From Kiritimatiella glycovorans (GTDB taxonomy: Bacteria; Verrucomicrobiota; Kiritimatiellia; Kiritimatiellales; Kiritimatiellaceae), in assembly GCF_001017655.1 (NCBI RefSeq), contig NZ_CP010904.1, forward strand, positions 2,220,001 to 2,252,000: a stretch of 32,000 nucleotides of DNA. Direction: 5' to 3'. Under the pieces are notes generated by a model. That model had not been told where the DNA came from. It worked only from the letters and a program-made list of their open reading frames with translations, and did not search any database. Position 1 is the stretch's first letter; each line of letters begins with the position of its first letter. Positions 1,680-30,792 of the stretch are shown one piece after another. The translations under genes were made by a program, and so were the position numbers.

Positions 1680-1748
1680 CCGCACACAGCGGGGTTCCCG
1701 CTCGTACATCCCGGCGAAAAGAAACGCTGAACATCGGAGAGGATCATT

Positions 1749-3428: not shown

Positions 3429-3507
3429 AGAGGAACTGTACCCCGGACTTTGTTTAATTCGCCGCCGGAAGGTTCCGGTGCACGCACAACCAAACCATGG
3501 AGATGCT

Positions 3508-4830: not shown

Positions 4831-4844
4831 TGAGAGGAGCCACC

Positions 4845-7800
4845 ATGAAAATGAAAAGAGGATCGCGGACGGTCACACTGGTGAAGTTTGTGCTGGTCGG
4901 CGCATGCCTGCTCGCAGCCGGACAGGCGGCCCGTGCCCTGACCGATGAGCTGTTCGCCTTCGACAACGGTCTGCAGGATATCAAGGGGCTGGAGGCCAAG
5001 GCACAGACGCTGAAGGAATTGGGCTATTCGGGCATAGGCTGGCGTCCCAACGGCGAGACCGCGGCTATGCTGAAGGTGCTGGACCGGCACGACCTGAAGA
5101 TGGTCAGCACCTATGTAAGTCTGCGCGTCGGGGCCGACCCCCTGCCCCTGAGTGACCGGATCAAAAACGAGCTGCGCGCTCTGGAAGGCCGGGACACGAT
5201 CGTGTGGCTGACGCTGCTCAGCGGAGAAGGCGGCACGGATGAGTCGGCCGTCGCCATGGTTCGGGAAGTGGCGAAGATCTCGGAGGAAGTGGGACTGGAG
5301 GTGGCGCTCTACCCGCACGCCGGCTGTCATGTGGAAACGGTCGAGGACGCGCTGCGGATGGCGGACGAGGTGGACCGCCCGAATGTCGGCGTCTCGTTCA
5401 ACCTCTGCCATTTCCTCAAAACCGGATCGGACCAGAACCTGAAGGCGGTCCTCCGGAAAGCGGCGCCGCAACTGCGGATCGTGTCCATCAACGGCGCGGA
5501 CCGCGGGGACACGCACGCGATGGGGTGGGCCCGGCTCATTCAACCGCTCGGAGAGGGAACGTTCCCGGTCGAGCGCCTGCTGGCCGCGCTGGACGAGGTC
5601 GGCTATGAGGGTCCCATCGGCCTGCAGTGCTTCAACGTGCCCGGGGAAGACCGCGAACATCTGCGCCGTTCGATAAGGTCCTGGCGCCGCCTGATCGCCC
5701 CCTGGAATCGGGACGCCCTGTTTTCCAGGGCCGCGGAATCGGAGTACGGCCAGAGCCGCGCCGCGCTGGCCCGGATCGTCGAACTGATCACGGACGCGCC
5801 CGCGGACCGGCAGCGGGAGTTTGAAACGCACAGCGTCGCGCTCCTGGAGGATCCCGACGCTTCGTGCCGCAGCAAACGAACGGTCTGTCACCTCCTGAGC
5901 CGGATCGGTACGGCGGAGTCTGTGCCGGCGCTGGCCGCCCTGCTCACCGATCCGCAGCTCTCCCATGACGCCCGCTACGCCCTGCAGGCGCTGGCCTGTC
6001 CCGAGGCCGATCGCGCTCTGACGACGGCACTGGATCGCGTCCCGGCGCCCCTCACGACCGGGGTGGCGGCGTCGCTGGGCACCCGCCGCGTCGAGGCCGC
6101 CGTTCCCGTCCTGGCGCAGCGGCTGAGCGACGACGGGGGCGATCCGGCGCTGCGCCATGCGGTCCTGACCGCGCTCGGGCGAATCGCGTCGGACCGCGCC
6201 CTCGCCGTCCTGCGCGAGGAGTTCGCGCGGACGCCGTCCGGGCCGGTCGGCCACGCCCTGATTCTATGCGCGGACACGCTGACCGCGGACGATCGGCGGG
6301 AGATGGCCGCGGAGCTGTGTCTCCATCTCTGGCGGGAGGCGCCCTCGCCCCTCTGCCGGGCCGCGGCTCTGCGCTCGCTGGCGCACTGCGCCCCCGACCC
6401 GGCGGCGGAACGGGTTGCCGAAGCGCTGCGGGACCCCGCAAGGCCCGTACGGGAGGCGGGCGTGGCCCTCGTCTCCGGGCTGCCGGTGAAAGCCACCCTG
6501 CACGCGGCCACGGAAGCCCTGCCTTCCGTACCGGACCGGCTTAAGGTCCGGCTGCTCACGGCCCTGCGCGAGCGCGGCGACCCCGCTGCCCGGCCGGCCG
6601 TGCTGGCCATACTGGATCACAACCACGACGACGTGAGGCTGGCCGCCCTGCGGACGATGGAAACGATCGGGGCGCCCGAAGATACCGGCCGGCTCCTCGA
6701 GATAGCCCTGTCCGGCGACGGCGACGTGAGCAAGGCGGCCGGACGCGCGCTGGCGCGTCTGCCCGGACGCGACGTGAGCCGTCGGCTGGCCGAGGCCTTC
6801 CGTCGCGCGGATGTAGAGCGGCAGCCCGGGATCTGCAGCCTCCTGGCCGCGCGGAACGATCCCGCCGACCGGCCCCTGTTCCGCACATGGATCCGCCACC
6901 CCTCCCCGGAGGTGGCCCGGTACGCGGGACAGGCGCTGGGACGTCTGGGCGAGGCGTCGGATCTGGACCTCCTGTTCGGCATGCCGGGCAGCCCGGACTT
7001 TCCCGGAACGTCGCGTCCGGCCGTGGAAGCCGCCGTGATGTCCATCGCAGAGCGCCTGCCGGCGGATGAGGCCGCGCAACGCGTACGGGACGGCCTCGAC
7101 AAAAGCGGACCGGAGGAGCGGGCGATGCGCCTCAGGATCCTGGCCGAAATCGGGGGCGAGGCATCCCTGGAGGCCGTCGTGCAGGCGAGCCGCAACGAGG
7201 ACGATCGGGTGCGGGACGCGGCCGTGCGCGCGCTGTGTGCCTGGAAACGACCGGAGGCCCTGAACCCGCTGCTGAAGATCGCGGCGGACACGGACAGCCT
7301 GACGCATCATGTACTCGCCCTGCGCGCCTGCCACCGGCTGCTGCAGAACAACCCCGAACCGGCCGGGGAACGGCGGAGCGAAGTGGTGGAGGCCGCGGCG
7401 GCGATCGCGCGCCGGGAGCAGGAAAAGAAACTGTTCACCTCCCTCGTCGTCGAAATCCACGACCTGCAGGTCCGCTCCCCGCGCACGTGGCGCGTGCATC
7501 CCGCCGGACTGGTTCCAGGGGCGGTGTGGACGAGTGACCGTGATTACACCTTTGTGAAAGTGCCCGACGGCGTATGGGGACACACGTATCTCGAGGGGGT
7601 CATGCAGGACCGCGCCATCGGCGGGGACGAACCGTTTATACGCTTCCGCATTGAGACCCCGGCCACCGTGTACGTCGCCTACGATCACCGCTGCACCGAT
7701 CTTCCGGACTGGCTGGCCGACTGGGAAAACACCGGCGAACGCCTGACCTCCACCAGTACGCCCTCGGACCTGATTCTCTACCGTAAAAGGTTCCCGGCCG

Positions 7801-7880
7801 GACCCGTAGCCCTCGGTTCCCCGGCCGCGCCGGGAACGCATGCCGTCTACGTGGTCGCCGTGGTCCGGCAGGAGATCTGA
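4845..7880 (+). CDS. secreted multidomain protein: xylose-isomerase-like TIM barrel (sugar phosphate isomerase/epimerase, AP_endonuc_2 type) + ~550-aa HEAT-repeat solenoid + C-terminal beta-rich domain of unknown function
   Basis: The track ORF 4512-7880 overlaps the previous gene. ATG 4845 has a GAGAGGAG RBS and gives the Sec signal MKMKRGSRTVTLVKFVLVGACLLAAGQAARA. TIM-barrel motifs: EVALYPHAGCHVETVEDALRMADEVDRPNVGVSFNLCHFLKTG and PLGEGTFPVERLLAALDEVGYEGPIGLQCF. About nt 5720-7400 encode Ala/Leu/Arg-rich ~30-aa repeats (e.g. VPALAALLTDPQLSHDARYALQAL, DDVRLAALRTMETIG, DDRVRDAAVRALCAW) typical of HEAT/PBS-lyase repeats. The C-terminal ~140 aa (WTSDRDYTFVKVPDG...TVYVAYDHRCTDLPDWL) look like a carbohydrate-binding-type beta sandwich. 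Confidence 0.7.
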   Translation: MKMKRGSRTVTLVKFVLVGACLLAAGQAARALTDELFAFDNGLQDIKGLEAKAQTLKELGYSGIGWRPNGETAAMLKVLDRHDLKMVSTYVSLRVGADPLPLSDRIKNELRALEGRDTIVWLTLLSGEGGTDESAVAMVREVAKISEEVGLEVALYPHAGCHVETVEDALRMADEVDRPNVGVSFNLCHFLKTGSDQNLKAVLRKAAPQLRIVSINGADRGDTHAMGWARLIQPLGEGTFPVERLLAALDEVGYEGPIGLQCFNVPGEDREHLRRSIRSWRRLIAPWNRDALFSRAAESEYGQSRAALARIVELITDAPADRQREFETHSVALLEDPDASCRSKRTVCHLLSRIGTAESVPALAALLTDPQLSHDARYALQALACPEADRALTTALDRVPAPLTTGVAASLGTRRVEAAVPVLAQRLSDDGGDPALRHAVLTALGRIASDRALAVLREEFARTPSGPVGHALILCADTLTADDRREMAAELCLHLWREAPSPLCRAAALRSLAHCAPDPAAERVAEALRDPARPVREAGVALVSGLPVKATLHAATEALPSVPDRLKVRLLTALRERGDPAARPAVLAILDHNHDDVRLAALRTMETIGAPEDTGRLLEIALSGDGDVSKAAGRALARLPGRDVSRRLAEAFRRADVERQPGICSLLAARNDPADRPLFRTWIRHPSPEVARYAGQALGRLGEASDLDLLFGMPGSPDFPGTSRPAVEAAVMSIAERLPADEAAQRVRDGLDKSGPEERAMRLRILAEIGGEASLEAVVQASRNEDDRVRDAAVRALCAWKRPEALNPLLKIAADTDSLTHHVLALRACHRLLQNNPEPAGERRSEVVEAAAAIARREQEKKLFTSLVVEIHDLQVRSPRTWRVHPAGLVPGAVWTSDRDYTFVKVPDGVWGHTYLEGVMQDRAIGGDEPFIRFRIETPATVYVAYDHRCTDLPDWLADWENTGERLTSTSTPSDLILYRKRFPAGPVALGSPAAPGTHAVYVVAVVRQEI

Positions 7881-7910
7881 GCAGGACACAACGAAAAGGT
7901 GAGAACATAC

Positions 7911-9359
7911 ATGAAAAGACCACATTTACTCCGTTCGCTTATTACGGGAATGGCCTTCCAGATCGCACTCATCCCCTCTCTGCTGAGGGGTGCCGATCGG
8001 CCCAATGTGCTCGTTATCATCAGTGACGATCAGGGATGGGCGGACATCGGCTACAACAATCCGAAGGTCTACACACCGAATCTCGATACCCTGGCCCGGA
8101 CAGGGGTAACCTTTATCAACCATTACGTCATGCCGCAGTGCACCCCTACCCGTGTGGCCTTACTGACGGGACGATATCCCGGACGCTTCGGCACTCAGGC
8201 TCTGCAGGCCCACAACGGCCCCGCGTTTCCCATTGGCACCCCTACGATCGCGAGCATGTTTAAGCAATCCGGCTATGCCACCTTCTTATGCGGAAAATGG
8301 CACCTTGGTTGTTCCCCGAAGCATGGACCCAATTTCCACGGGTTTGACCACAGCTACGGATCGCTCGCCGGCGCCATAGGGATGTATGACCACCGCTATC
8401 GCGAGGGACCGCTCAGTGACACCTGGCATCGCGACCATCAGCTCATAGAAGGACACGAGAACGGGGTTCATGCGACAGATCTGGTTACCCGGGAGGCGGT
8501 AGACATTATTGAGAAGAAACGTGATAAGCCTTTCTTCCTGTATCTTGCCTTCCATGCCGTTCATACCCCGCTGGATGAACGGGGACCGTTTGTCGATCAG
8601 CCCACGAAACCGGACCCGAATAATCCCAACCGCTGGATCAACGAAGACAGGATCAAGTGGTTCAACGATCCCGAGGGCAGGATACAAAGCGAACCGGATC
8701 CCGAGAAACGCCTCCTGCTGGCAGCCGCTTATCACCTCGACCATGCGATTGGCGAAATCGTCGATGCTCTTGAGCGCAGCGGAAAAAGAGAAAACACTCT
8801 GATACTCTTTTCGTCCGACAACGGCCCCCAGGTCAACTGGGGAGGGAACGCCTATCCGGACGATCTTAAGCTGACCGATTTTAACCAGCCCCTTCCCATG
8901 AAAGGCAAGAAGCTCGACGTCTGGGAAGGCGGCATCCATGTGCCCGCCTTTGCCAACTGGCCGGGCAGGATATCTCCCGGAGAGCTTACGGACTACGTAC
9001 ACATCATCGACTGGTTTCCTACATTGGCCTCGATCATGGATTATCAACCGGAAGAGTCCATACCGTGGGACGGCATCGATATTTCAGAGGCTATATTTGC
9101 CGACGAACCCCTTGAAAGCCGGGATCTCTACTGGATCTGGAACCGACGGATCAATCGATGGGCTTTGCGCTATGGTGACTGGAAGATCGTGAAATACGGA
9201 CGGGATGAACCCACCCATGCCGGCGCATGGCAGCTCTTCAACCTCAAGAACGATCCGAAAGAAAAGAACAACGTGGCCGCCACCCACCCTGAAGTCGTGG
9301 AAACCCTGCACAAGCGCTTTCTGGTGCAGCGAAGCAAGGATCTGCAGAAGCATAAATGA
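7911..9359 (+). CDS. Cys-type sulfatase (arylsulfatase family S1), Sec signal
   Basis: The track ORF starts at GTG 7899; ATG 7911 is preferred. Motifs: RPNVLVIISDDQGWADIGYNN and MPQCTPTRVALLTGRYPGRFG (the C-x-P-x-R formylglycine motif), with GKWHLG further downstream. GC is noticeably lower than in the neighbours. Confidence 0.9.
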   Translation: MKRPHLLRSLITGMAFQIALIPSLLRGADRPNVLVIISDDQGWADIGYNNPKVYTPNLDTLARTGVTFINHYVMPQCTPTRVALLTGRYPGRFGTQALQAHNGPAFPIGTPTIASMFKQSGYATFLCGKWHLGCSPKHGPNFHGFDHSYGSLAGAIGMYDHRYREGPLSDTWHRDHQLIEGHENGVHATDLVTREAVDIIEKKRDKPFFLYLAFHAVHTPLDERGPFVDQPTKPDPNNPNRWINEDRIKWFNDPEGRIQSEPDPEKRLLLAAAYHLDHAIGEIVDALERSGKRENTLILFSSDNGPQVNWGGNAYPDDLKLTDFNQPLPMKGKKLDVWEGGIHVPAFANWPGRISPGELTDYVHIIDWFPTLASIMDYQPEESIPWDGIDISEAIFADEPLESRDLYWIWNRRINRWALRYGDWKIVKYGRDEPTHAGAWQLFNLKNDPKEKNNVAATHPEVVETLHKRFLVQRSKDLQKHK

Positions 9360-9520
9360 TGAGGCGCGGCACCACTCGCACGGTCAACATATCGAATCCG
9401 CATCCGCTGAAAGGATCGGATTCACCATGACCTGAGTTCCCCATGGAGACCCCCGGGGGAGTATCGTACGCGTACGCGTACTCGAATTGCTTGAATCGGG
9501 GTGAAGGCAGGGATCAGCAG

Positions 9521-9652
9521 TTCTCATTATGGCCCCATTCCGACCGCGGACGGCGTGGCAGCCGTCCCTCCCGAGTCGATATCCGACGCATTTTCGGGCA
9601 CTGGGAGGGTCGGGTGCCACCCCGACCGAAAAGGGTGAAGCCATAATGAGAA
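9521..9652. repeat. 132-bp palindromic element (candidate MITE or structured RNA) with 13-bp perfect terminal inverted repeats
   Basis: TTCTCATTATGGC (9521-9533) is the exact reverse complement of GCCATAATGAGAA (9640-9652). Each arm holds a perfect 7-bp hairpin: GGACGGC-GTGGCA-GCCGTCC (9548-9567) and GGTCGGG-TGCCAC-CCCGACC (9608-9627). CCCTCCC (9566-9572) and GGGAGGG (9603-9609) flank the centre. Confidence 0.8.
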
Positions 9653-9686
9653 TCGCTGGGCAGGGACGGACCTCCGGGCCGTCCGC

Positions 9687-9715
9687 AAAAGAGCGGCGCG
9701 CTCGGAGAGCACGCC
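9687..9715 (-). terminator. candidate intrinsic terminator downstream of the PHP-hydrolase gene
   Basis: The minus strand reads GGCGTGCTC-TCC-GAGCGCGCC, a 9-bp GC-rich stem with one G-U pair, followed by GCTCTTTTG. It lies about 90 nt after the stop at 9807 and is part of a repeat family (see 29106-29171 and 11784-11845). Confidence 0.4.
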
Positions 9716-9806
9716 CTACCCAAGAGGTGCAAGCCGAACCCGTGCGGGAAGGTAGGGACGGACCTCCGGGCCGTCCGCCGTGTGCGTACGCGTACTCAGC
9801 AAAGCG

Positions 9807-11717
9807 CTACGCCTTCACCCATACGGGGGTGGACCAGGCGCGTTCGCCGTTGTCCTGTTCGACGCGCACGTAATAGAAGTGTTCGCCGGGGCCGGGATCG
9901 TCGTCGAACTCGAACTCGACGACGCCGTTCTCACTGCGTTCGCGCCTGATCTCCTCGTTGTCGCGGAGGAACACGACATCCATACCGCCGTCGCGGCCGG
10001 CCACCTCACCCGCGAGTCGGCATCTCCCGCCCGATTCCGTCTCCTGCCCCATCGGGGTGCCGTTGACGCTGAAATCGAGGTAGATCCGGTCGAACGTGGT
10101 GGCGTAGACGCTGCGGTTCCACAGCGCGTCCCAGATCGATTCCCGGTCGAGCCGCGGCGCGACGAAGGCGGTCATGCCGTTCTTGGTCACCATCCATTCG
10201 CAGCGTCCCGGACGCGAGACGTGGGTGTCCGAGCAGGCGATCACGCCCGTGCGGATGCCCTGCGCGAGCCCCGCCTGGAGCGTTTTATCCGGATCGAGGT
10301 TGGGAAGACTGCGCGGATTGCCCGCGTACTCGGCGGTTCCGTGGCACGAATAGACCTCGGCGAACCGGCAGGAGCGCGGATCCCATTCGCCCCAGGGATA
10401 GGTCTTCTCGCCGCGGTCGTAGGCGAAATGATGCGGCCCGGCGGCCATCACGGGCCCGCCGCGATTATACTGCTCCCACGCGAGTTTCAGGCATCCCCCG
10501 TATTTCGGCGTGTAGTACTCCGAGTGGGGCGCCTCCACGGTCCGGTGATAGAAGTTGATGTGGTCGAAGTGCGTCCCGGCCTCCTCGGCGAGCAGCGTCA
10601 CGTAACGGCCCGGCTCATAGAAATCACGCACGATCTGCTGCGTCCCCGGCCAGTCGTAGTGCCAGTGATCCGACAGCGCGCAGACGTCGAGATTGGCCTC
10701 GTCGCGCCCGAAGCGGTAGTATTCCTCCATCGTGCCGCAGCCGTCGGAGACGCGCGTATGACCGTGGATGTCCCCGAACCAGATCCGGTTCGCGGGCGGG
10801 TCGTTGAAGACGCGGATCGGCTCGCCGCGTCCCTCGAGTCCGCCGCCGCGCAGCCGCAGGCGGTGCGGACCCTCGTCGCGCAGCTCGATCCGGATGCGCG
10901 CCATCCCGCGCCGCAGCCGCACGCCGCGCCTGAGGACCGATCCGTCCTCGTCGCGCACCTCCACCTCTTTTTCGAAATCGACGGCGGTGTTGTAGAAGGC
11001 GTCCTCGGCGCGCACGAGCAGTTCGAACGGCTCGCCGCGGACCTGCACCATCGGGGCCGTAGCGATCAGGTGATCCGCCGCGGCGGGCTCGATATCCCGC
11101 GCCGGATACTCGCCGATTCCCTCGAACACGCCGTCGGCGTCCGAGTCGGTGGCGACAAAGAACTCGTGGTTCGGGTCGGCGGTACTGGGCACGCGCGCCT
11201 TATGGCGATTCGCGCCGAAGATCACGCGCACCTTTTCGCCCTCGCGCAGGGCGCGGCCGCTGATTTTTGTCTGGATGCACTGGTGATAGATCAGCGGCGT
11301 GGAGCCCGACCAGTCCATCGCCGGCGGTCCGCCGGGGGCGCGGTGCATCGATTCGTTCGGCGCCCATCCGTACCAGTGGTTTTCAAGCTTCACGCCGTCC
11401 GGCCCCTCGACGCCGATATAATTCGGGGCGTCGGGGTTATCGACCTGAAATTTCGAGATATGACCGGTGCGGGTGTTCCAGAGCGCGGCGTGGTGGACGC
11501 CGACCCAGATCCCGCCGCCGACCGGGATGCCGCCCGCGCCGACGGCGACCTCGACGACCACGCGGGTTTTCGTCCCGGCCACGAGCCGGTCCGGCTCGAG
11601 GATGCGCGCCGATCCCGCGCCGCTCCCGTCGTAGGCGCGGGTGACAAAGGGCGTCAGGCCGGTCGCACCGGCGGCGACGCCGAGCTGAGCGATAAATCCT
11701 CTGCGGTTCTGTTTCAT
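9807..11717 (-). CDS. Tat-exported PHP-domain (CehA/McbA-like) metallohydrolase with N-terminal beta-sandwich region
   Basis: The track ORF is 9807-11837. The internal ATG at 11717 has a GGGAGA RBS and yields MKQNRRGFIAQLGVAAGATG, a twin-arginine signal. PHP-type metal motifs: WFGDIHGHTRVSDGCG, CALSDHWHYD and IACSDTHVSRPG. Confidence 0.7.
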   Translation of the reverse strand: MKQNRRGFIAQLGVAAGATGLTPFVTRAYDGSGAGSARILEPDRLVAGTKTRVVVEVAVGAGGIPVGGGIWVGVHHAALWNTRTGHISKFQVDNPDAPNYIGVEGPDGVKLENHWYGWAPNESMHRAPGGPPAMDWSGSTPLIYHQCIQTKISGRALREGEKVRVIFGANRHKARVPSTADPNHEFFVATDSDADGVFEGIGEYPARDIEPAAADHLIATAPMVQVRGEPFELLVRAEDAFYNTAVDFEKEVEVRDEDGSVLRRGVRLRRGMARIRIELRDEGPHRLRLRGGGLEGRGEPIRVFNDPPANRIWFGDIHGHTRVSDGCGTMEEYYRFGRDEANLDVCALSDHWHYDWPGTQQIVRDFYEPGRYVTLLAEEAGTHFDHINFYHRTVEAPHSEYYTPKYGGCLKLAWEQYNRGGPVMAAGPHHFAYDRGEKTYPWGEWDPRSCRFAEVYSCHGTAEYAGNPRSLPNLDPDKTLQAGLAQGIRTGVIACSDTHVSRPGRCEWMVTKNGMTAFVAPRLDRESIWDALWNRSVYATTFDRIYLDFSVNGTPMGQETESGGRCRLAGEVAGRDGGMDVVFLRDNEEIRRERSENGVVEFEFDDDPGPGEHFYYVRVEQDNGERAWSTPVWVKA

Positions 11718-11747
11718 GACGGTTCTCCCTGTCAGTTTCTTCAGACG

Positions 11748-11775
11748 GGGCGGTTCGGCTGCATACCCGAACCGC
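11748..11775 (-). other. intercistronic perfect 10-bp hairpin between the sulfatase and the PHP-hydrolase genes
   Basis: GGCGGTTCGG-CTGCATAC-CCGAACCGCC. There is no U-tract on the transcribed strand, so it is more likely an mRNA processing or stability element than a terminator. Confidence 0.4.
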
Positions 11776-11783
11776 CGCAATAA

Positions 11784-11845
11784 CGGCGCGCTCAGCCTGT
11801 CCGCCGAAGGCATCAAGGCCGAAGGCGGAGAGAGCACGCCCTACC
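11784..11845 (-). repeat. gene-end repeat family, copy C (interrupted); overlaps the sulfatase stop codon
   Basis: The minus strand reads GGTAGGGCGTGCTCTCTCCG...(34 nt)...GAGCGCGCCG. The TAG inside GGTAGGG is the stop codon of CDS 11841-13262. Confidence 0.6.
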
Positions 11846-13262
11846 TTTTCGCCGCGAGCATCGTCTCGAGCCGCTCCACGGTCTCTGCATACTCCGGGTG
11901 ATCCACTACATTGTGGTGTTCTTCGGGGTCGTTCTTATGATCGTAAAGCGCCCGGCCGCCCTCCCGTCCGGTCCACTCGCAGTAGCGCCAGCGTTCGGTG
12001 CGCACCGACCACAGGTTGCGGCCGAACTGTGTATAGGCCGCACCGCTCCATTCATCCCAAGCCATCGTCGGCTCACGCAGCAGCGGCACCAGATTTCGAC
12101 CTTCGAGTCCCTCCGGCCGTTCAAATCCGGCCATGCGGGCGAGCGTCGGGTAGAGATCGAGGAATTCCACGACGCGGTGACAGGTCCGGCCGGCGGTGGG
12201 CATGCCGGGATAGGCGATCATCAGCGGCGAGCGCGCGGACCGCTCGAAGACCGTGGTCTTGCCCCACCAGTCCTTCTCCCAGCAGTGGTACCCGTGATCG
12301 CCCAGGAACACGACGATCGTGTCCTCTTCGAGGCCGAGTTCGCGGAGGCGGTCGAGGACCTGGCCCACGGAGTCGTCCACATACGATATGCAGGCGTAGT
12401 ACGCGCGGAGCAGCTCCTTCTTCTCGACCGTCGTGAGCTGTTCGTAGGCCTGCCCCCACTGCCCGATCGGGAACGCGCCGGCGGGCGGGTCGTCGGCGTC
12501 GGCGGGTTCTTCGGGAAGACGCAGCTTTTCGACGGGGTAGGGTTCGAAGAACCGCTGCGGCGCGAAATAGGGGTTGTGAGGCCGAATGAAGCCGCAGGCG
12601 AGGAAGAACGGTTCTTCCTTCTGCGCGCATACGTCGAGCTGATCCAGGGTATGACGCAAAATGCTGTCGTCGTACGTATCGCCCTCCGTGACCTCCTTCC
12701 AGAGACACCACCCGAGCTGGTGCTCGTGATTGCGGGTGGGGTTGTCGAACGGACCTTTCGTACTGCGCAGCTCGTCGAGCCACCACTCGGCGGCAAAATC
12801 CCAGCTCTTCGGATCCTTCTCGCCGACGTGGAACGTTTTGCCGATCGTGGCGGTATAGTAGCCCTGTTCGCGGAAGAACTGCGGAAGGCTGACCACGTCG
12901 GGGTTCAGGTCGCGGAAGTTGTCCTTGTTGTTGACGACCCCCAGCGTCTCCGGCCGCAGGCCGGTCAGGAACGACGCCCGGCTGGGATTGCAGACGGAGA
13001 ACTGACAGTAGGCGTGGTGGAAACGGACGCCGCGCCGGGCCAGCGCGTCAAGGTTCGGGGTCTGCACGATCGGGTGTCCGTAACAGCCGATATCGGTGTT
13101 GAGGTCGTCCGAGATGAGAAAGAGGACGTTTTTACGCCCGCCCTCCGCCTTCGCCGTCAATCCCGCCGCCGGTCCCGCGGCCGCGATCCCCGCGCCCGCC
13201 GCGGCCATCCGCAGAAAATCCCGCCGGCCCAGTCTCGTCTCAGCACCGTGATTCCGCCGCAT
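11841..13262 (-). CDS. Cys-type sulfatase, iduronate-2-sulfatase-like, Tat signal
   Basis: 473-aa ORF with a GAGAGGAGG RBS. The Tat signal is RLGRRDFLRMAAAGAGIAAAG. The segment KNVLFLISDDLNTDIGCYGHPIVQTPNLDALARRGVRFHHAYCQFSVCNPSRASFLTGLRPE closely follows the iduronate-2-sulfatase active-site pattern (C-x-P-S-R). Confidence 0.9.
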   Translation of the reverse strand: MRRNHGAETRLGRRDFLRMAAAGAGIAAAGPAAGLTAKAEGGRKNVLFLISDDLNTDIGCYGHPIVQTPNLDALARRGVRFHHAYCQFSVCNPSRASFLTGLRPETLGVVNNKDNFRDLNPDVVSLPQFFREQGYYTATIGKTFHVGEKDPKSWDFAAEWWLDELRSTKGPFDNPTRNHEHQLGWCLWKEVTEGDTYDDSILRHTLDQLDVCAQKEEPFFLACGFIRPHNPYFAPQRFFEPYPVEKLRLPEEPADADDPPAGAFPIGQWGQAYEQLTTVEKKELLRAYYACISYVDDSVGQVLDRLRELGLEEDTIVVFLGDHGYHCWEKDWWGKTTVFERSARSPLMIAYPGMPTAGRTCHRVVEFLDLYPTLARMAGFERPEGLEGRNLVPLLREPTMAWDEWSGAAYTQFGRNLWSVRTERWRYCEWTGREGGRALYDHKNDPEEHHNVVDHPEYAETVERLETMLAAKR

Positions 13263-13287
13263 CTCATCCTCCTCTCATAACCGTTTC

Positions 13288-13338
13288 ATTATGATCCCCC
13301 CGTCCCCGGAGTCAACGGGAAATTGCTATCGTTTGCAC
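13288..13338 (-). promoter_or_regulatory. sigma70-type promoter plus conserved upstream operator of sulfatase 11841-13262
   Basis: The minus strand reads GTGCAAACGATAGCAATTTCCCG-TTGACT-(16 nt)-CATAAT-(25 nt)-ATG. The block from GTGCAAACGATAGC to TTGAxTCC recurs almost identically at 30722-30751, upstream of a different sulfatase. Confidence 0.6.
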
Positions 13339-13364
13339 GCCTTCCGGCAGGATGCGGGGATAGA

Positions 13365-13390
13365 CCATGAAGAACATGAAGGGCATGAAG
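13365..13390 (-). repeat. three tandem 9-bp units CTTCATGNN (minus-strand reading)
   Basis: The minus strand reads CTTCATGCC-CTTCATGTT-CTTCATGGT and continues ..ATCCCC. A second array with the same orientation relative to its downstream gene is at 19486-19512. Confidence 0.75.
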
Positions 13391-13428
13391 ATTGGTTTGG
13401 GGGAGGCGAAGGCGGGCTTGCGGGCCTG

Positions 13429-14583
13429 CTACGAACGTTCTTTTTCCTTCATACGGTACTGGCGCGGGGTCATCCCGAAACGCTGCCGGAAGATGCGGTG
13501 AAGATACTCGGGCGTGTTGAATCCCGATACGGCGGCGATATCGGAGACCGAATAACTCGTCTCGCGCAGCAGCTGGCACACGCGGTTGACCCGCAACCGC
13601 ATCAGCTCGCCGTGAATGGTCTGGTTCAGACGGGCCTTGAAGCAGCGCTGCAGCGAGCGGCGCGAGGTCCCCGAAGCCTCTACGATGTCCTCGACGCTCA
13701 GGTCGCGATGGAAGTTGGCGTGGAGGTAGCGCAGCGCACGCACCATGCAGGGATCGTTGATCGCGAAAATGTCGCTGCTCTGGCGTACGGTAATGCCCCG
13801 GTGCGGGATGGTGATGATCCTGCGCGCGGAGGGCTCCCCGCTCATCAGCCGGTCCAGCTCGGCCGCCGCCCGCCTCCCCAGCTCTTCGAGGTCGTGATTG
13901 ATGCTCGACAGGGGCACCGCGGCCGTCGGGCAGATCAGCGGATGATTGTCGGTGCCGAGTACGGCCACTTCATGCGGAACCTGAATGCCGCCGGAGACAC
14001 AGGCATCGAGAAGATCGGCCGCCTGAACGTCGTTGTAGACATACGCCGCACACGGCAGGGCGGCGACCGCCAGCTCGTCGTGGATCCATGCCTCCAGCTT
14101 CTCCCACGGAGGGGTCCGGGTGCCGAACTGCGCATCGACGACCAGCCGTCGACAGTTGAACCCATGACGCGCCAGCTCCGCCGTGTAGCCCTCACAACGT
14201 TTACGGGCGGGGGCATGGTCCCGCGCCGAGAACCAGAGAAAGCTCCTGAATCCGCGATCAAGAAAATGGAGCGCGGCCTCGCGTCCCATCGCCTCGTTGT
14301 CGCCGGTCAGGTGCGGCATTGCCAGACGATCGCGGATGATCGACAGATCGACCTTCGGAACGCGGCGACGAAGCACCGCGCCGGTCAGGGGATCGTCCGG
14401 ATCCAGCACCGCCACGATCCCGTCACACCCCCGCCTGCGGATGGGACCGGGGTCCGTTCCGAAGAGATTGGTCAGGTGCCAGCGGTTCCCGCTCGCATAC
14501 TGAGCCACCCCGCGATGGACGCGCATGTTGTACCGCTCGCCCATCACCAGCAGAACCCGCCGATGCCTGATCAGTCTGTCCAT
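13429..14583 (-). CDS. XylR-like hybrid regulator: sugar-binding (LacI/PBP-type) sensor domain + C-terminal AraC-family HTH
   Basis: 384-aa ORF. The C-terminal segment VEDIVEASGTSRRSLQRCFKARLNQTIHGELMRLRVNRVCQLLRETSYSVSDIAAVSGFNTPEYLHRIFRQRFGMTPRQYR is a canonical AraC dual-HTH. The N-terminal ~270 aa have a PBP-like alternating pattern. Confidence 0.85.
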   Translation of the reverse strand: MDRLIRHRRVLLVMGERYNMRVHRGVAQYASGNRWHLTNLFGTDPGPIRRRGCDGIVAVLDPDDPLTGAVLRRRVPKVDLSIIRDRLAMPHLTGDNEAMGREAALHFLDRGFRSFLWFSARDHAPARKRCEGYTAELARHGFNCRRLVVDAQFGTRTPPWEKLEAWIHDELAVAALPCAAYVYNDVQAADLLDACVSGGIQVPHEVAVLGTDNHPLICPTAAVPLSSINHDLEELGRRAAAELDRLMSGEPSARRIITIPHRGITVRQSSDIFAINDPCMVRALRYLHANFHRDLSVEDIVEASGTSRRSLQRCFKARLNQTIHGELMRLRVNRVCQLLRETSYSVSDIAAVSGFNTPEYLHRIFRQRFGMTPRQYRMKEKERS

Positions 14584-14766
14584 GGCCGGCCATGCTGCCC
14601 GACTATGGCGCGATTGTACATACTTTTTTGGCAGAATTTACATCTAGGAATTAACCTCAGAGCAGATCACACTGACCGACGTCTTAATGGGAAATCGATT
14701 GCTCGCGCTTTCAGCGCATGAGCAATGGACGGGGGAGAGGTAAACCAAGCAAAGGGAGAAAGAACG

Positions 14767-15690
14767 ATGAAGATACTGAGAATCATGTTTGTGTTTGTAT
14801 TGACGCTTGCGCTCGGCGCCACGGCGTGGGCCACGGATTACACCTGGGACGGTACCGGCGACGGTACGACCTTTGATGACGCGGGAAACTGGTCTCCGGC
14901 GGGGTCCGCATTCACCACGAATGATCATTATACAGTAGACGACGGATCGGCCGTCAGCGTCACCGGAACACTGGATATCCAGTCCTTCTTTTTGGCTGGA
15001 AACGACGGAAGCATGACCATCGAGGAGGGAGCGTCGGTCTCCATCAACAAGAGCGCAGAAACTCATATTGATTCGAGCTCTACGCTGACGATTGACGGGA
15101 CGCTCTCGACGGGCGCCTATCGTTACGACCTTCGGGGGAACGGCGGTACGCTCAACATTATCGTCAATGGAACCCTGGACAGCGAACCCGCCAACAACCT
15201 GATGAGCACGGGATGCAATATGCTCATCGATGTCCATGGATCCATGGACTTTGGGGTAGGTCCAATGGGCCGCGTAGCCGGGGGCGGTCAGCGGGATCAC
15301 ACCATCAGCATTTTCACCAACGGCGTAGTGACCATGCAGAGGGACCTCCAACTCCAGGCCACGAATGGTCATACCGCCTCGGTCCGTCTGATCGGGGGGG
15401 ATCTGGATATGGGTACGCTGAGTTACCTCTATGGCGACCTTAACCTCTCGGACGAGGATAACGGGATCATCTTTCAGTCCGCCGAATCCTCCGTGTTCAT
15501 GGACGGGGACCAGACGAACACCGTTCAGGGCTGGATCGACGACGGCGCGCTCTCGTCGACGGTCGGGGACCTCCAGGTCCGATACGATGCGGGCAGCGAC
15601 CTCACGACCGTCATCCCCGAACCGGCGACGATCGGTCTGCTCGGCGCGGCGATGGGCGGCCTGATGCTGCTCCGTCGGCGCATTCGATAG
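14767..15690 (+). CDS. PEP-CTERM-anchored secreted protein carrying an uncharacterised ~295-aa module
   Basis: The track ORF starts at 14725. ATG 14767 has a GGGAGA RBS and gives the signal MKILRIMFVFVLTLALGATAWA. The C-terminus VIPEPATIGLLGAAMGGLMLLRRRIR is PEP + TM helix + Arg cluster, i.e. an exosortase sorting signal. The body starts YTWDGTGDGTTFDDAGNWSPAG. Confidence 0.85.
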   Translation: MKILRIMFVFVLTLALGATAWATDYTWDGTGDGTTFDDAGNWSPAGSAFTTNDHYTVDDGSAVSVTGTLDIQSFFLAGNDGSMTIEEGASVSINKSAETHIDSSSTLTIDGTLSTGAYRYDLRGNGGTLNIIVNGTLDSEPANNLMSTGCNMLIDVHGSMDFGVGPMGRVAGGGQRDHTISIFTNGVVTMQRDLQLQATNGHTASVRLIGGDLDMGTLSYLYGDLNLSDEDNGIIFQSAESSVFMDGDQTNTVQGWIDDGALSSTVGDLQVRYDAGSDLTTVIPEPATIGLLGAAMGGLMLLRRRIR

Positions 15691-15789
15691 CCCGGCGACG
15701 CAGCGGAGCGTTCCATTCATACCCGGCATGGAAACATGCCGGGGTCTTTGTACACGGATAAGTACATTATCGCGGCAGGGAGAGGTCTC

Positions 15790-18759
15790 ATGAAATCATT
15801 CAGCGCGCGGCTGGTTTGCATGCTGCTGCTTTCCGTGGCGGTCATACCGGCGGGGGCGGCGCCGTACAGCTGGGACGGCGGAGGCGACGGCACAAGCTTC
15901 GGCGATGCGGGGAACTGGAATCCGGCGGGGTCGTCGTTCACCACGGGAGACGATTACGCGATCGGCGACGGATCGTCCGTGAACGTCACCGGGACGGTGG
16001 AGGTCGGGTCCATCCGGCTGTACGGAAGCGAAGGGAGCCTGACCATTGAAGAAGGCGCGGCGCTCTCCATCGCCGACTCGACCAGCGGGACGATCTCCCA
16101 GATCGATGCGTCTTCGACGGTGACGATCGACGGGACGCTCTCGACCGGTTCGCAGCGTTACGATATCCGCGGACAGTCGGGTACGGTCAAGATCGCCGTC
16201 AACGGAACCTGGGACGCAGCCCCCGCCAACAACGGGATTACCGACGACGCCAACGTGCTCTTCGAGGTCAACGGCTCCATGGATTTCGGGATCCGCCACA
16301 GCTTCGGCCGCGTAGCCGGGGGCGGTCAGCGGGATCATCGCATCAGCATCTACCCCGGCGGCACCGTCACGATGCAGCAACCCCTTTCGCTGCAGGCCGC
16401 CCACGGTCATACCGCCTCCATCCGCCTGACGGGAGGGACGCTCGATATGGGCGGCGAGACCTACGAATACGAGAAGCTGGATCTCTCGGACGAGGATAAC
16501 GGGATCATCTTCCGGGATGCCGACTCGACCCTCCGGTTGAGCGGCGATCGGAGGGATCGCGTTCAGGCCTGGATCGACGACGGCGCCCTCCGCTCGGAGG
16601 TGGGCTCGCTTACGAGCCGATACGATCCCGCCGGGAACACGACGACCGTACTGCCCTCCGCGGCGGCCCCTGCGGCCCCTGCTGAGCCGGCGGAGCAGCC
16701 CGCCCGTCCAACGCAAGCCGCCGCGAAGGGGCGTGTCCGCATCCATGCCGACACGCCGTGGATCGTTCCTGACGCCTATCGCCGGCAGGTCACCGTCGGC
16801 AACGAGCCCGTCATGCGGGCGCTGGAAGACGTGAAGCGCGACTGGTACAAGGTGTTCGGTCACCGCCCCGTCGTACGGCCCCGGGCGCCGCAGAACTGGG
16901 ACGGTCCGATGATCGTCTTCGGCGTAACCCCGGACGGAGACCTCCCCCGGGGGCCCGAGAGTTTCGCCCTGCGCGTGCAAAGAGATTCCGGCGGGCCGCG
17001 CATCCTCGTCAACGGAAACGACACCCGCGGACTCATCTTTGCCGCCTATGCCCTCTCGGAAGAAATCCTCGGTGTGAACCCGTGGTATTTCTGGACCGGT
17101 CACGAACCCGAGGCGCGGCGGCATATCGACGTCCCGGCCACGCTGAACGAGACGTTCGGCCCTCCGACCTTCCGTTACCGCGGATTCTTCATCAACGACG
17201 AGGATCTGCTCGGCCGTTACTCGCCCGATCCGCTGCGCGAGACCGTCTATTCGCTCGACATGCTCGACCGCATCTGCGAGACGATTCTGCGCCTGCGGGG
17301 CAACATGATCGTGCCGGGCACCTTCAACTTTCCCGACGAACGCTGCTGGGAATTCGCCTCCCGCCGAGGTCTGGCGCTGAACATGCACCATATTTCCGTG
17401 GTGGGACTGCTCACCTGGCGCTGGCCTGAGGATGTGCCCTATTCCTACCGCAAGCATCCGGAGATTATGGAGCGCTACTGGCGCCAGTGTATCTCCGCCT
17501 TCGAGGGCTTTGAAACGGTCTGGACCGTCGGATACCGCGGCAAACATGATCGTCCTTTCTGGGAATATGAGACGGAGGTCAAAACCGCAGAGGAACGGGG
17601 AGCCGTCATCACGGAGGCCATGGCCCGCCAGGTGGAACTCATCCGCGAGGTGGACCCGGACGGCATGATCATAGCCAACCTCTGGGAGGAAGGCAGTCAG
17701 CTCATGCACGAGGGGCACGTGACACTGCCGGAGGGCGTGGTGCGGGTCTGGGCCGACAACGGCGGCGGGGTCATCGACGACGACGGTGCCGCCCGGGCCG
17801 GAGACGGCATCTACTATCACACCGCCATGATGGGGAGTATGCGCAACCAGCTGACCGAGCTGGTTACCCCGAGCCGGATCTACCGGGAACTCGGCCGCTT
17901 CGCGCGGGCCGGGGGCACGAGTTACCTGCTGGTCAACGTCAGCGACGTTAAACCGGTCCCGCTCTCCACCGAATGCGCGATGCGCTTCGCGTGGAACGCC
18001 GATCCCTACCTGGACCGGACGGACGAGCAGAACGGGGACGCGTATCTGCTCGAGTGGAGCCGGCGCGAGTTCGGGGAGGAAGTGGCGGAGGAAATTGCGG
18101 AGGTCTATGAAGGCTACTTCAATATTCCTTACAAGCGCAAACCACCCCACCGCGGCGCCAACGCCAATCACACCGTTCTCAGGCGCCAGCTCGACGGCCC
18201 CGCCGCGCCTCTGCTGGCCGCGGGCGAACCCCTAACAAAAGAGATCCTCGCGAATGCGGAGGAACTGCGGGCCTTTGCCGCATCCAATATCGCCTACGTG
18301 AAAAAACTGGCGGCCGAAGCCGAGCCGATTCTCGATCGGTTGCCCGAGCCGCGGCGCGCATTTTATCAGGAGCATGTGCTCGCCCAGATCCAGTTCCATC
18401 TCCAGGGCCTCATCATGCTGGAACAATACTGCCTGGCGCTGGAGGCGTACGATCGGAACGACACCGCCCGCGCCGTCGCCTGCGCCGAACAGGCGCTCGC
18501 GGCGTGCGAGAGGATTATCGAATCCATGCATGAGGCCGAATCGGGCCGCTGGACGACCTGGTATTACGGCGACGGCAAGGTGAACGTCGAGGACAGCCGC
18601 GACCGGATACGGGTATTGCTGGCCCGGCTGAATGGCGAGCCTCCGCCTCCGACGCGGCCGCGCAGACAGCATATCTTCGACTACCAGGAGCAGGAGAGGT
18701 TCGAGGGCAACTTCCCCTACCTGTACCCGCACTGCGACGGGAAACGCGTGATCGAGTAG
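15790..18759 (+). CDS. GH115-like glycoside hydrolase (alpha-(4-O-methyl)-glucuronidase family) with an N-terminal paralogue of the preceding PEP-CTERM module
   Basis: The track ORF starts at 15736. ATG 15790 has a GGGAGAGG RBS and gives a signal peptide. Residues ~24-300 align with CDS 14767-15690. A Pro/Ala linker (AAAPAAPAEPAEQPARP) follows. GH115-type motifs then appear: ILVNGNDTRGLIFAAYALSEEILGVNPWYFW, FRYRGFFINDEDLLG and ICETILRLRGNMIVPGTF. Confidence 0.75.
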   Translation: MKSFSARLVCMLLLSVAVIPAGAAPYSWDGGGDGTSFGDAGNWNPAGSSFTTGDDYAIGDGSSVNVTGTVEVGSIRLYGSEGSLTIEEGAALSIADSTSGTISQIDASSTVTIDGTLSTGSQRYDIRGQSGTVKIAVNGTWDAAPANNGITDDANVLFEVNGSMDFGIRHSFGRVAGGGQRDHRISIYPGGTVTMQQPLSLQAAHGHTASIRLTGGTLDMGGETYEYEKLDLSDEDNGIIFRDADSTLRLSGDRRDRVQAWIDDGALRSEVGSLTSRYDPAGNTTTVLPSAAAPAAPAEPAEQPARPTQAAAKGRVRIHADTPWIVPDAYRRQVTVGNEPVMRALEDVKRDWYKVFGHRPVVRPRAPQNWDGPMIVFGVTPDGDLPRGPESFALRVQRDSGGPRILVNGNDTRGLIFAAYALSEEILGVNPWYFWTGHEPEARRHIDVPATLNETFGPPTFRYRGFFINDEDLLGRYSPDPLRETVYSLDMLDRICETILRLRGNMIVPGTFNFPDERCWEFASRRGLALNMHHISVVGLLTWRWPEDVPYSYRKHPEIMERYWRQCISAFEGFETVWTVGYRGKHDRPFWEYETEVKTAEERGAVITEAMARQVELIREVDPDGMIIANLWEEGSQLMHEGHVTLPEGVVRVWADNGGGVIDDDGAARAGDGIYYHTAMMGSMRNQLTELVTPSRIYRELGRFARAGGTSYLLVNVSDVKPVPLSTECAMRFAWNADPYLDRTDEQNGDAYLLEWSRREFGEEVAEEIAEVYEGYFNIPYKRKPPHRGANANHTVLRRQLDGPAAPLLAAGEPLTKEILANAEELRAFAASNIAYVKKLAAEAEPILDRLPEPRRAFYQEHVLAQIQFHLQGLIMLEQYCLALEAYDRNDTARAVACAEQALAACERIIESMHEAESGRWTTWYYGDGKVNVEDSRDRIRVLLARLNGEPPPPTRPRRQHIFDYQEQERFEGNFPYLYPHCDGKRVIE

Positions 18760-18793
18760 GTCCGACCGCCTCTGCTCACAGACCCGCAGCGGG

Positions 18794-18837
18794 CCGCGAG
18801 GTGCGGACGCGTGATCGCACGCGCCTCGCGGTTCTTC
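18794..18837 (+). terminator. candidate intrinsic terminator after the GH115-like gene
   Basis: CCGCGAGG (18794-18801) pairs with CCTCGCGG (18824-18831), with an inner GCGTG/CACGC stem. It is followed by TTCTTC. Confidence 0.4.
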
Positions 18838-18881
18838 AAATCCACTCCGGAAAACACCCCCGACCCCTGAGTTCAACATTG

Positions 18882-18999
18882 GGAGACCCGGGGGAATATC
18901 GTACTCGTACTGAACCCGCGCCTGAAGGCAGGGATTCTGCTGGACAGCAGAAGGCCGTCCGCCGTGTGCGTACTCGTACGCGTAATCGGTCCCTGCCTT
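18882..18999. repeat. composite interspersed repeat (copy b, compact form of 9445-9797)
   Basis: See 9445-9797. This copy is closed by a 10-bp inverted repeat, AAGGCAGGGA (18925-18934) / TCCCTGCCTT (18990-18999). Confidence 0.8.
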
Positions 19000-19058
19000 T
19001 TCTACTCCTGAGAAGGAACCTCATCGGAGCAAGGCCCGCCATCCACTAAAAATCCTGC

Positions 19059-19148
19059 TCGTAGTAGCGCCTGGCCTGCCCCCGGCAGGCCAGGCGCGTG
19101 AAGATAACGGCCCTGGCCCTGCTTCGCAGGCCTGCGGGCCTACTACGA
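19059..19148. repeat. 90-bp multi-stem palindromic structure (outer 9-bp stem enclosing two hairpins)
   Basis: Outer stem: TCGTAGTAG (19059-19067) / CTACTACGA (19140-19148). Inner perfect 14-bp hairpin: GCGCCTGGCCTGCC-CCC-GGCAGGCCAGGCGC (19067-19097). A second small hairpin CCTGC-TTC-GCAGG lies near 19117-19130. Confidence 0.75.
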
Positions 19149-19162
19149 ACGTAAGAGAGCGC

Positions 19163-19240
19163 GCACGATCTCTTTGCCTGCGCTCTTCTCATTCATCTTT
19201 GCGATCTCTGCGCCTTGGCGAGAGTCATGTCTTGTGTTTT
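19163..19240 (+). repeat. direct repeat unit, copy 1 (period ~175 bp)
   Basis: TTTGCCTGCGCTCTTCTCATTCATCTTTGCGATCTCTGCG...CTTGTGTTTT matches copy 2 at about 90% over the first ~50 nt. Copy 1 carries extra CCTTGGCG, which pairs with CTCTCGCCAAG at 19289-19299. Confidence 0.8.
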
Positions 19241-19337
19241 TTGTCAGCGGCGGCACTCCGTCCGCTGAAGTGACTTCAATCCGTTTTTCTCTCGCCAAGC
19301 CGCCAAGGTCGCCAAGGAATTTCTTCCTTCGAGGGGG

Positions 19338-19407
19338 GCACGATTTATTTGCCTACGCTGTCCTCATCCATCTTTGCGATCTCTGCGAGAGACCTTTCTT
19401 GTGTTTT
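19338..19407 (+). repeat. direct repeat unit, copy 2
   Basis: TTTGCCTACGCTGTCCTCATCCATCTTTGCGATCTCTGCG...CTTGTGTTTT. Confidence 0.8.
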
Positions 19408-19485
19408 CGACCACGGATTACACCGGGGACACGGATGGGATCGCGCCTGCGGCGGTCCGAGTACGAGTACGAATTATGTTCACCC

Positions 19486-19512
19486 CTTCATGCTCTTCAT
19501 GTCCTTCATGGT
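19486..19512 (+). repeat. three tandem 9-bp units CTTCATGNN
   Basis: CTTCATGCT-CTTCATGTC-CTTCATGGT, followed by GAATCCC. It lies about 220 nt upstream of the PEP-CTERM gene start at 19729. Confidence 0.75.
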
Positions 19513-19728
19513 GAATCCCATTCTCTCTCCCCACGATCGCGATTCTACGCTCCCCCTGATCTTCCGCACCCCCCCTTTTTTTGGCGCAAATGTGCATTAT
19601 TTTATTTTTGAAGGTTAATTATGCATGCAGACTGAAGTCGGACTAATATGCATAGCATATACGAGGGTAATTCACAGCGGCAAGACTTGTGGATTGCGAA
19701 ATGCAGAAAACAGACAGGGAGGAGAGCG

Positions 19729-20481
19729 ATGACAGGTACAGGTTTATTCAGGCCCATGCTCGCCCTTATCGTCACGGGGCTGATTACGGGAGCGGCGCAT
19801 GCCGGCCTCATTACCAACATCACTGAAGGATTCGAGTATACCAATACTACGGAGCTTTACGACGCGGGATGGTCACACCTCTATGGCGACCAGGGGGACA
19901 TGGTTATGGCGGACGAGAACGTCAACAACCGCCTGCCTCGCTCCGGTACGTACTGCCTGCTCGCACCCTCGAACCATCAACCCAATATCGTGCAGAAGAC
20001 GTACTTTGCCGGCGGAGTCACCAACGCGACGGTAGAGTTCTACCTGATGCACCGGAATATCAGTTACCTGAATTCAGCCGACAGCTGGATGCGCCTCTAC
20101 GCGGATGACGGCACTTATATGTACCTGAAGATCAACTCGAGCAACGGAAGCCTGATTTACGATCTCAATGGCGCGGGTGATGTCACGGCTCCCGACGACG
20201 TTACGGACCACGATTCCAACGGCGGACTCTGGAACAAATTTACGTTCGAGTATGATTCCGAGGGCACCTGCGTGATGTCACTGAACGATGATGTTCAGTT
20301 CACGAACGCAAACGCCAAAAACTTCAGCAAAATCGCCCTCGGAAAATCCTGGAACGATGATTTGCGAGGACGCCAGTCAGCCTACGATGATCTGAGCATT
20401 TCGGTCATTCCCGAACCGGCCGCCCTGGGACTGATGGGGCTGGGCGTCGCGGCGCTGCTTCTCCGCAGAGTGCGATCTTAA
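19729..20481 (+). CDS. PEP-CTERM-anchored secreted protein with a concanavalin-A-like/LamG-like lectin-fold body (fold assignment tentative)
   Basis: The track ORF starts at 19648. ATG 19729 has a GGGAGGAGAG RBS and gives the signal MTGTGLFRPMLALIVTGLITGAAHA. The C-terminus VIPEPAALGLMGLGVAALLLRRVRS is a PEP-CTERM signal. GC is lower than in neighbouring genes. Confidence 0.8.
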   Translation: MTGTGLFRPMLALIVTGLITGAAHAGLITNITEGFEYTNTTELYDAGWSHLYGDQGDMVMADENVNNRLPRSGTYCLLAPSNHQPNIVQKTYFAGGVTNATVEFYLMHRNISYLNSADSWMRLYADDGTYMYLKINSSNGSLIYDLNGAGDVTAPDDVTDHDSNGGLWNKFTFEYDSEGTCVMSLNDDVQFTNANAKNFSKIALGKSWNDDLRGRQSAYDDLSISVIPEPAALGLMGLGVAALLLRRVRS

Positions 20482-25917: not shown

Positions 25918-25933
25918 CACAGAGGAGCACTCC

Positions 25934-30751: not shown

Positions 30752-30792
30752 TTTCTCGAAAACCGGAAACTGTGAGATTATGTCTTTTAAAC

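Follow-up and report, generated by a model that had tools for sequence, protein, structure and literature searches.

Two sulfatase genes that stand far apart in a 32-kb window of the Kiritimatiella glycovorans chromosome (the window being the whole stretch of DNA analysed here) are preceded by nearly the same short sequence, which raises the question of what this sequence does in front of both genes and what might read it. Sulfatase genes number from dozens to hundreds in Kiritimatiella and related PVC bacteria, and the published 2.95-Mb genome of K. glycovorans L21-Fru-AB (63.31% GC) encodes 56 sulfatases and 66 glycoside hydrolases (PMC5148204). The window itself has a GC content of 64%, and K. 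glycovorans has no close sequenced relatives.

Both sulfatase genes lie on the minus strand. Sulfatase 1 (11841-13262; 473 aa, with the Pfam domains Sulfatase and SGSH_C and a Tat-like signal, RRDFL, in its translation) is followed after 3 nt by the gene of a 676-aa protein with a weak DUF3604 match (9807-11837, minus strand; Pfam and translation), and because this gap is so short, the two genes probably form one transcription unit. Sulfatase 2 (29206-30675; 489 aa from a GTG at 30675, Tat-like KRSDFL) is monocistronic, since the gene downstream of it is convergent. Both proteins are sulfatases by Pfam and share 29% identity. Upstream of sulfatase 1 lies the gene of an XylR-like regulator that we call regA (13429-14583, minus strand; Pfam Peripla_BP_3 and HTH_18), and beyond it the plus strand encodes a PEP-CTERM protein (14767-15690), a GH115 (15736-18759), a second PEP-CTERM protein (19648-20481), a GH2 (20630-24703), a URO-D-like protein (24784-25917) and a 1059-aa protein with an F5/8-type-C domain (25862-29041), while a secreted pectate-lyase-like protein is encoded on the same strand from 30793. 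The PEP-CTERM protein at 14767-15690 (plus strand) has a paralogue in the adjacent GH115, whose N-terminal ~300 residues (15736-~16700, plus strand) are related to it, and this paralogy is visible in the DNA as the repeat families D1/D2, which are 72-75% identical across 146-224 nt.

At the other end of the window, the gene map places the N-terminus of a second XylR-like regulator (2-478, minus strand), whose 158 residues align from residue 5 of E. coli XylR with E = 3e-6. This gene is divergent from an operon (645-9359, plus strand) for a URO-D-like protein, a Na+/solute symporter, a Gfo/Idh/MocA protein, a TIM-barrel/HEAT protein and, as its last gene, a third sulfatase, and the spacer between them contains GCACAATG twice, 10 nt apart.

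Read on the minus strand, copy 1 of the shared sequence (13338-13308) is GTGCAAACGATAGCAATTTCCCGTTGACTCC and copy 2 (30751-30722) is GTGCAAACGATAGCCTTTCCCGTTGAATCC. The sequences and coordinates of the original prediction proved right, as did its 14/14 and 11/11 runs of identity, between which AA stands against C, that is, one 1-nt indel plus one mismatch; a partly shared tail follows. With this tail, block copy 1 spans 13305-13338 on the minus strand and consists of Box A GTGCAAACGATAGC (13338-13325), Box B TTTCCCGTTGA (13322-13312) and the tail CTCCGGG, and block copy 2 spans 30719-30751 on the minus strand with Box A at 30751-30738 and Box B at 30736-30726. When the two 240-nt upstream regions were aligned locally, the best alignment was exactly this 34-nt stretch (GTGCAAACGATAGCAATTTCCCGTTGACTCCGGG versus GTGCAAACGATAGC-CTTTCCCGTTGAATCCCGG), with a score of 46 against 17.2 +/- 2.4 and a maximum of 30 for shuffled sequences (n=500). 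The sulfatase 1/2 pair also ranked first among the 136 pairs formed from 17 upstream regions of the window, for which the median score was 16, and the two sub-blocks at 9/11 or better each, with a gap of 0-6 nt, occurred once in 3 Mb of first-order Markov sequence, or ~0.011 times per 32 kb. The alignment score relative to the shuffles and this Markov rate therefore establish that the block is real and exclude chance.

The block is sharply bounded. Upstream of its first G only 2/9 bases agree, and on the 3' side it ends 3-6 nt past the -35 hexamer, the 16-nt spacers beyond agreeing at ~6/16. A repeat search of the window returned the block only as the short family D12, and no larger repeat surrounds it, because the similarity breaks off at both ends of the 34 nt and flanking inverted repeats are absent. 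With similarity confined to 34 nt and 2-3 copies in 32 kb, the possibility that the block belongs to a larger mobile repeat, which had been raised together with the original prediction, has little in its favour, and the description of two different sulfatases with otherwise unrelated flanks holds. Since the two sulfatases are only 29% identical, the block is not a leftover of a recent gene duplication, and neutral DNA in front of them should have been randomised. Taken together, the near-perfect identity, sharp edges and fixed register of the block, set between unrelated flanks at deeply diverged genes, point to a functional promoter-proximal element under selection.

Several other repeats occupy spacers of the window. 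An exact triple 9-nt repeat (CTTCATGNN x3) is present at 13366-13390 (minus strand) and 19486-19510 (plus strand), where it lies in a 32-nt block, 29/32 identical, that is common to the upstream regions of sulfatase 1 and the second PEP-CTERM gene. It is located 27 nt upstream of block copy 1 and forms the second-best upstream-region match in the window, the sole outlier apart from the sulfatase pair. REP-like units of the CGTACGCGTACGCGTAC type are found at 9465-9484 and 9779-9798, in the convergent spacer 9359-9807, and at 18969-18988 in the spacer 18760-19648, which also contains a 50-nt direct repeat of 88% identity (19163-19212 and 19338-19387).

The block keeps the same position relative to the predicted promoters of both genes. 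The sigma-70-type promoter predicted for sulfatase 1 (13288-13315, minus strand) has a -35 TTGACT (13315-13310), a 16-nt spacer and a -10 CATAAT (13293-13288); it matches the consensus at 10/12 positions, was the sole promoter-like site reported in 13200-14800 by a promoter scan with a threshold of 9/12, and would place the transcription start of sulfatase 1 at ~13281. The promoter predicted for sulfatase 2 (30702-30729, minus strand) has a -35 TTGAAT (30729-30724), a 16-nt spacer and a -10 TACGAT (30707-30702), and with 8/12 matches it falls under the scan threshold and was read from the sequence; the start of sulfatase 2 would then be at ~30695 on the minus strand. The distance from the -10 to the start codon is 25 nt for sulfatase 1 (ATG at 13262) and 26 nt for sulfatase 2 (GTG at 30675), with a GGAGG ribosome-binding site in both cases, which confirms the common geometry that had been described for the two genes. 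If transcription starts ~7 nt past the -10, as our numbering assumes, the block has the same orientation at both genes and reaches from about -57 to about -27, with Box A at approximately -57 to -44 in copy 1 and -56 to -43 in copy 2 and Box B at -41 to -31. It thereby abuts or overlaps the predicted -35, and the hexamer itself begins with TTGA, the four bases that close Box B. It is from this arrangement that we infer promoter activity.

Next to copy 2, the divergent gene from 30793 (plus strand), which encodes a signal peptide and a pectate-lyase-like domain, is without a Shine-Dalgarno sequence, and an extended -10-like TGAGATTAT (within 30752-30795, plus strand) ends ~13 nt ahead of its ATG, so its mRNA may be nearly leaderless. 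A protein bound to copy 2, which lies on the opposite strand just upstream of this divergent promoter, could therefore act on both genes.

Other kinds of element were rejected. No Rfam family was present in the window at gathering thresholds, and the 83-nt regions of the two copies folded no better than their shuffles (z = -0.54 and +0.26), so a cis-regulatory RNA such as a riboswitch or leader is unlikely. Alternative sigma factors were discounted by eye, the GG-N10-GC spacing of sigma-54 being absent, the AAC-to-CGT distance being only 12-13 nt for an ECF sigma factor, and no TAAA standing at the right distance for sigma-28.

A degenerate sequence at 14684-14704 (minus strand), GAGCAATCGA[T]TTCCCATTAA, in which each box matches at 9/11 positions, is probably a third copy of the block. 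Its place is between the genes of regA and the PEP-CTERM protein, with the regA ATG ~100 nt further downstream, and its orientation is that of the other copies; its boxes overlap by 1 nt, compared with a distance of 4-5 nt in the other two copies, and no recognisable usable -35 or -10 follows it. The chance expectation for a pair of this quality is ~0.012 per 32 kb, a value that depends on thresholds chosen after the site had been seen. Counting this probable copy, all three are intergenic, upstream of the gene that follows and on the same strand as that gene.

To follow the block outside the window, a degenerate two-box pattern covering all three window copies (GCAAWCGATN{0,5}TTTCCCRTTRA) was searched in 185,579 species genomes, where it gave 59 single scattered matches against ~50 expected by chance. 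None of the 59 had the context of the block and none came from Kiritimatiella, the window's own three sites likewise not being returned, so that this collection must mask the window or the entire genome. Strict block patterns had 0 matches in metagenome contigs and viral contigs. Conservation upstream of orthologous sulfatases, which had been suggested as a check, was not seen: the closest sulfatase-1 homologues (loci L070 and L071; 53-55% identity, in different operons) have no block beside them, and across 80 metagenome loci of distant sulfatase-1 homologues Box A is not enriched (allowing at most 2 mismatches, 5 matches were counted over 1.04 Mb of strand where ~11 were expected). Searched for as text in the literature, the box sequences turned up in unrelated primers and vectors only. 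In L071, the sequence GCGCAAACGTTGGCA at 294-308 (plus strand), in the spacer upstream of the two-gene unit with the closest homologue (55% identity), matches Box A at 12/15 positions and is more palindromic, with a score at noise level for the whole locus.

The gene adjacent to copy 1 offers a candidate regulator. As the original prediction had it, regA ends 91 nt upstream of copy 1, and the gene is thus flanked by copy 1 on one side and the third copy on the other. Its product combines a LacI-type sugar-binding domain with an AraC-type HTH and matches E. coli XylR (4FE4/4FE7) over its full length with E = 1e-33. The orthologue group shares 48-61% identity, below which there is a gap down to 37%, and seven distinct loci of it were compared: L060 (from a Pelagicoccus genome), L061, L062, L063, L064/65, L066 and L067/68/69. 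In these loci (L060-L069) the regulator adjoins hexuronate genes (UxaC, UxuA, KduI, SDR, RraA-like, TRAP DctPQM and Nramp), and GH88, GH67 or GH2, sulfatases, a PEP-CTERM protein or a 720-aa homologue of the window protein 25862-29041 are also found nearby.

All seven loci (7/7) carry an AT-rich operator beside the start codon of the regulator gene, with the form CG[CT][AG][AT]A[AT]GT[ACG][CT]AT-N16-17-T[AG][CT]AT, as exemplified by CGCAAATGTACATAAAAAACTCGGATAATTACAT in L060, and each locus has exactly one strong site (L060 ~9975-9939 on the minus strand, L061 ~9969, L062 ~9976, L063 ~619, L064 ~9224, L066 ~9927 and L067 ~1425). Most of these operators contain an internal direct repeat of 21-22 bp, 6/8 of them matching themselves at 8-12 of 19-20 positions. 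A two-box matrix built from the seven non-window sites only found its top match in the window at 14609 (plus strand), beside regA, with a score of 26.3 compared with 17.4 for the runner-up; this site (CGCGATTGTACAT-N17-TACAT, 14609-14643, plus strand) has the same architecture as those beside the orthologues and is the putative cognate operator of regA. The best single box 1 of the window, CGCAAATGTGCAT at 19585-19597 (plus strand), precedes the second PEP-CTERM gene and the GH2 operon, and the nearest TGCAT second box after it (19622-19626, plus strand) is at +37, not at +22/23. The conserved operator and the consistent linkage of the orthologues to hexuronate genes suggest that regA, which is probably uronate-responsive, is an activator of the GH115 and GH2 operons.

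Since regA has a recognisable operator of its own, the sulfatase block should be something else. Activation of the two sulfatase promoters by regA bound to the block is an unlikely explanation in our judgement, and slightly less likely than the involvement of a LacI-type protein, even though the neighbourhood of regA speaks for it: the gene stands between two copies, its L063 orthologue directly precedes two sulfatase genes, and 0 block copies were found outside the window in the genome search, which would favour a local regulator if that search covered the remaining chromosome. Moreover, XylR-type proteins bind beside the -35, and a single dimer is able to contact two separate sites at once (PMC3561964). 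A loose resemblance to the regA operator even exists in copy 2 when its 5' flank is included (CGAGAAAGTGCAA...TGAAT), with a matrix score of 5.2 (rank 31 of ~64,000 positions), but this score rests on non-conserved 5' flank bases that are absent from copy 1, which scores below zero. In addition, the block has an A where 9/9 operators keep an invariant T (GTGCAA versus GTnnAT), it shows no direct repeat (self-match at offsets 21-23 of only 3-6 of 18-20 positions in both copies), and nothing like it was found in the regA-orthologous loci. The matrix scores and the missing repeat led us to reject the block as a variant of the regA operator, and the proposal that regA is its binder is not supported. 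The proposed fit to LacI/CcpA-type operators is likewise not supported. According to this explanation, Box A would be a PurR- or CcpA-cre-like operator read by a LacI-type regulator whose gene lies outside the window, which we regard as improbable. Box A, TGCAAACGATAGC, does fit the degenerate core TGNAANCGNWNNC, and its left half, GCAAACG, equals what we take to be the E. coli PurR half-site; LacI-family regulators also occur in comparable loci, for example L067. Against the fuller form WTGNAANCGNWNNCW, however, neither copy has the first W, and only copy 1 has the last W. The pattern was defined post hoc, and TGNAANCGNWNNC-type matches number 4 in the window against 1.6 expected, the intergenic ones being only the two known copies, with no further cre-like sites found there. 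Dyad symmetry about the central CG is partial, at 5/7 pairs in copy 1 and 4/7 in copy 2, which has a ~1% chance per position and ~0.2 across the block and is unremarkable given the sliding positions. The asymmetric conservation continues through TTTCCCGTTGA, for which a dyad operator of 14-20 bp gives no explanation, and no LacI-type HTH (PF00356) was detected in 19 scanned ORF translations covering all inferred genes of the window.

Explanations without a dedicated factor have to be weighed as well. A promoter cassette, consisting of an upstream element and the -35, might have been copied between promoters and retained simply as a good promoter, and we consider this the least improbable of the rivals, though still doubtful. 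The 25/25 identity is above what is typical for two sites of one factor (for scale, the two operator-type boxes of the window agree at 10/13 positions), the promoter of copy 1 is close to consensus, and Box A, with 43% GC in the 64%-GC window, is comparatively rich in AT and placed where an UP element would be. Upstream of sulfatase 1 there is also a second short block, unrelated to the first, that recurs in another promoter region, a hint that such intergenic pieces change places in this genome. On the other hand, no likely mechanism would copy a 34-nt patch in front of an unrelated gene and hit the identical register, the UP-element consensus is matched poorly as judged by reading, and the third copy carries both boxes with neither a usable -35 nor a usable -10 behind them. 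As for an origin from a mobile or REP-like repeat, or by coincidence, the window does contain several short intergenic repeat families, yet the abrupt end of similarity, the lack of inverted repeats, the empty searches of metagenome and viral contigs and the chance level of the genome matches all argue against a repeat, and the shuffle scores and Markov simulation against coincidence, so that we give this explanation hardly any credence.

A shared cis-regulatory element is accordingly the best reading of the block, because it is non-random, stands in the same register at two distant sulfatase genes and is part of no larger repeat. In this respect the original interpretation survives as that of a real, same-register element, the proposed regulator and the LacI analogy are not supported, and the suggested regulon signature is a proposal that covers these 32 kb. 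We lean, by a modest degree, towards a transcription-factor site fused to the -35, in which Box A (about -57 to -44) and the TTTCCCG stretch just upstream of the -35 would together be bound by a sequence-specific factor. Such a factor would act at the -35; tentatively, it might recruit RNA polymerase in a class-II-like manner, and it would less probably work by occluding the -35. Because the same module heads both units, sulfatase 1 (with the 676-aa gene) and sulfatase 2 could be switched together, presumably by a sulfated-glycan signal, and the third copy may tie the XylR-like regulator gene into the same circuit. The factor is probably not the adjacent regA, because the conserved operator of the latter is another sequence, and we favour a putative, as yet unassigned factor over either regA or a LacI-type protein.

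Several observations weigh against a factor-binding site. An identity of 25/25 exceeds what most factor sites need and fits a copied promoter cassette equally well; the promoter of copy 1, with 10/12 consensus positions, needs no activator; the spacing between Box A and Box B (5, 4 and -1 nt) is awkward for one rigid protein; and further copies are lacking both in other genomes and metagenomes and beside the closest sulfatase-1 homologues. On a more speculative level, the three copies could be all the operators that a lineage-specific factor has, this factor standing above the uronate-type XylR regulator in a two-tier circuit, an idea that we hold to be improbable. If true, such a circuit would couple desulfation with the removal of uronate side chains from one sulfated glycan, and the boxes, spaced by -1, 4 and 5 nt, would be contacted by two DNA-binding heads joined by a flexible linker.

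We know of no description of sulfatase regulation in Kiritimatiellota or PVC bacteria, and if the two-tier circuit is real, the block would be a first defined sulfatase operator in this group. A defined operator-promoter module would serve as a handle for pulling down the regulator, and co-regulation could group sulfatases by substrate. At its plainest, the block is a shared promoter element for which the evidence is good but whose kind, with its putative binder, is ordinary, and the conserved XylR-type operator, which is hexuronate-linked across loci of other genomes and metagenomes, may be the more immediately useful outcome.

Sites of Class II activators of the AraC/XylS/MarA type overlap the -35, and in a textbook comparison the block resembles them in being asymmetric, conserved into the -35 and present in one fixed orientation, whereas, unlike typical activator-dependent promoters, the promoter of copy 1 is already near consensus. 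With LacI-family operators such as the PurR box and the CcpA cre, the block shares the degenerate 14-mer pattern and a central CG; it differs from them in its weak dyad symmetry and in the asymmetric conservation that runs on for another 15-20 nt. It also recalls the "putative mobile promoters" reportedly described by Matus-Garcia et al. (NAR 2012), which are said to be homologous promoter segments in the spacers ahead of genes that are not themselves homologous, since here too a near-identical promoter segment precedes two genes that are not recent duplicates; unlike those segments, the block is only 34 nt long, was seen in only 2-3 copies and was found in no mobile-element context. A further parallel is the E. 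coli XylR system, in that the locus in the window encodes XylR-type hybrids of a LacI-type sensor domain and an AraC-type HTH. E. coli XylR sites are ~37 bp long, consist of two direct repeats and lie beside the -35 (PMC3561964), and the operators IA and IF of the xylA and xylF promoters are, like the block, placed directly beside the -35 of a sugar-utilisation promoter (PMC3561964). The block is similar in length (~34 bp versus ~37 bp; PMC3561964) and, unlike the E. coli sites, has no internal direct repeat. It is the inferred operator of the local XylR homologue (14609-14643), rather than the sulfatase block, that matches the XylR paradigm.
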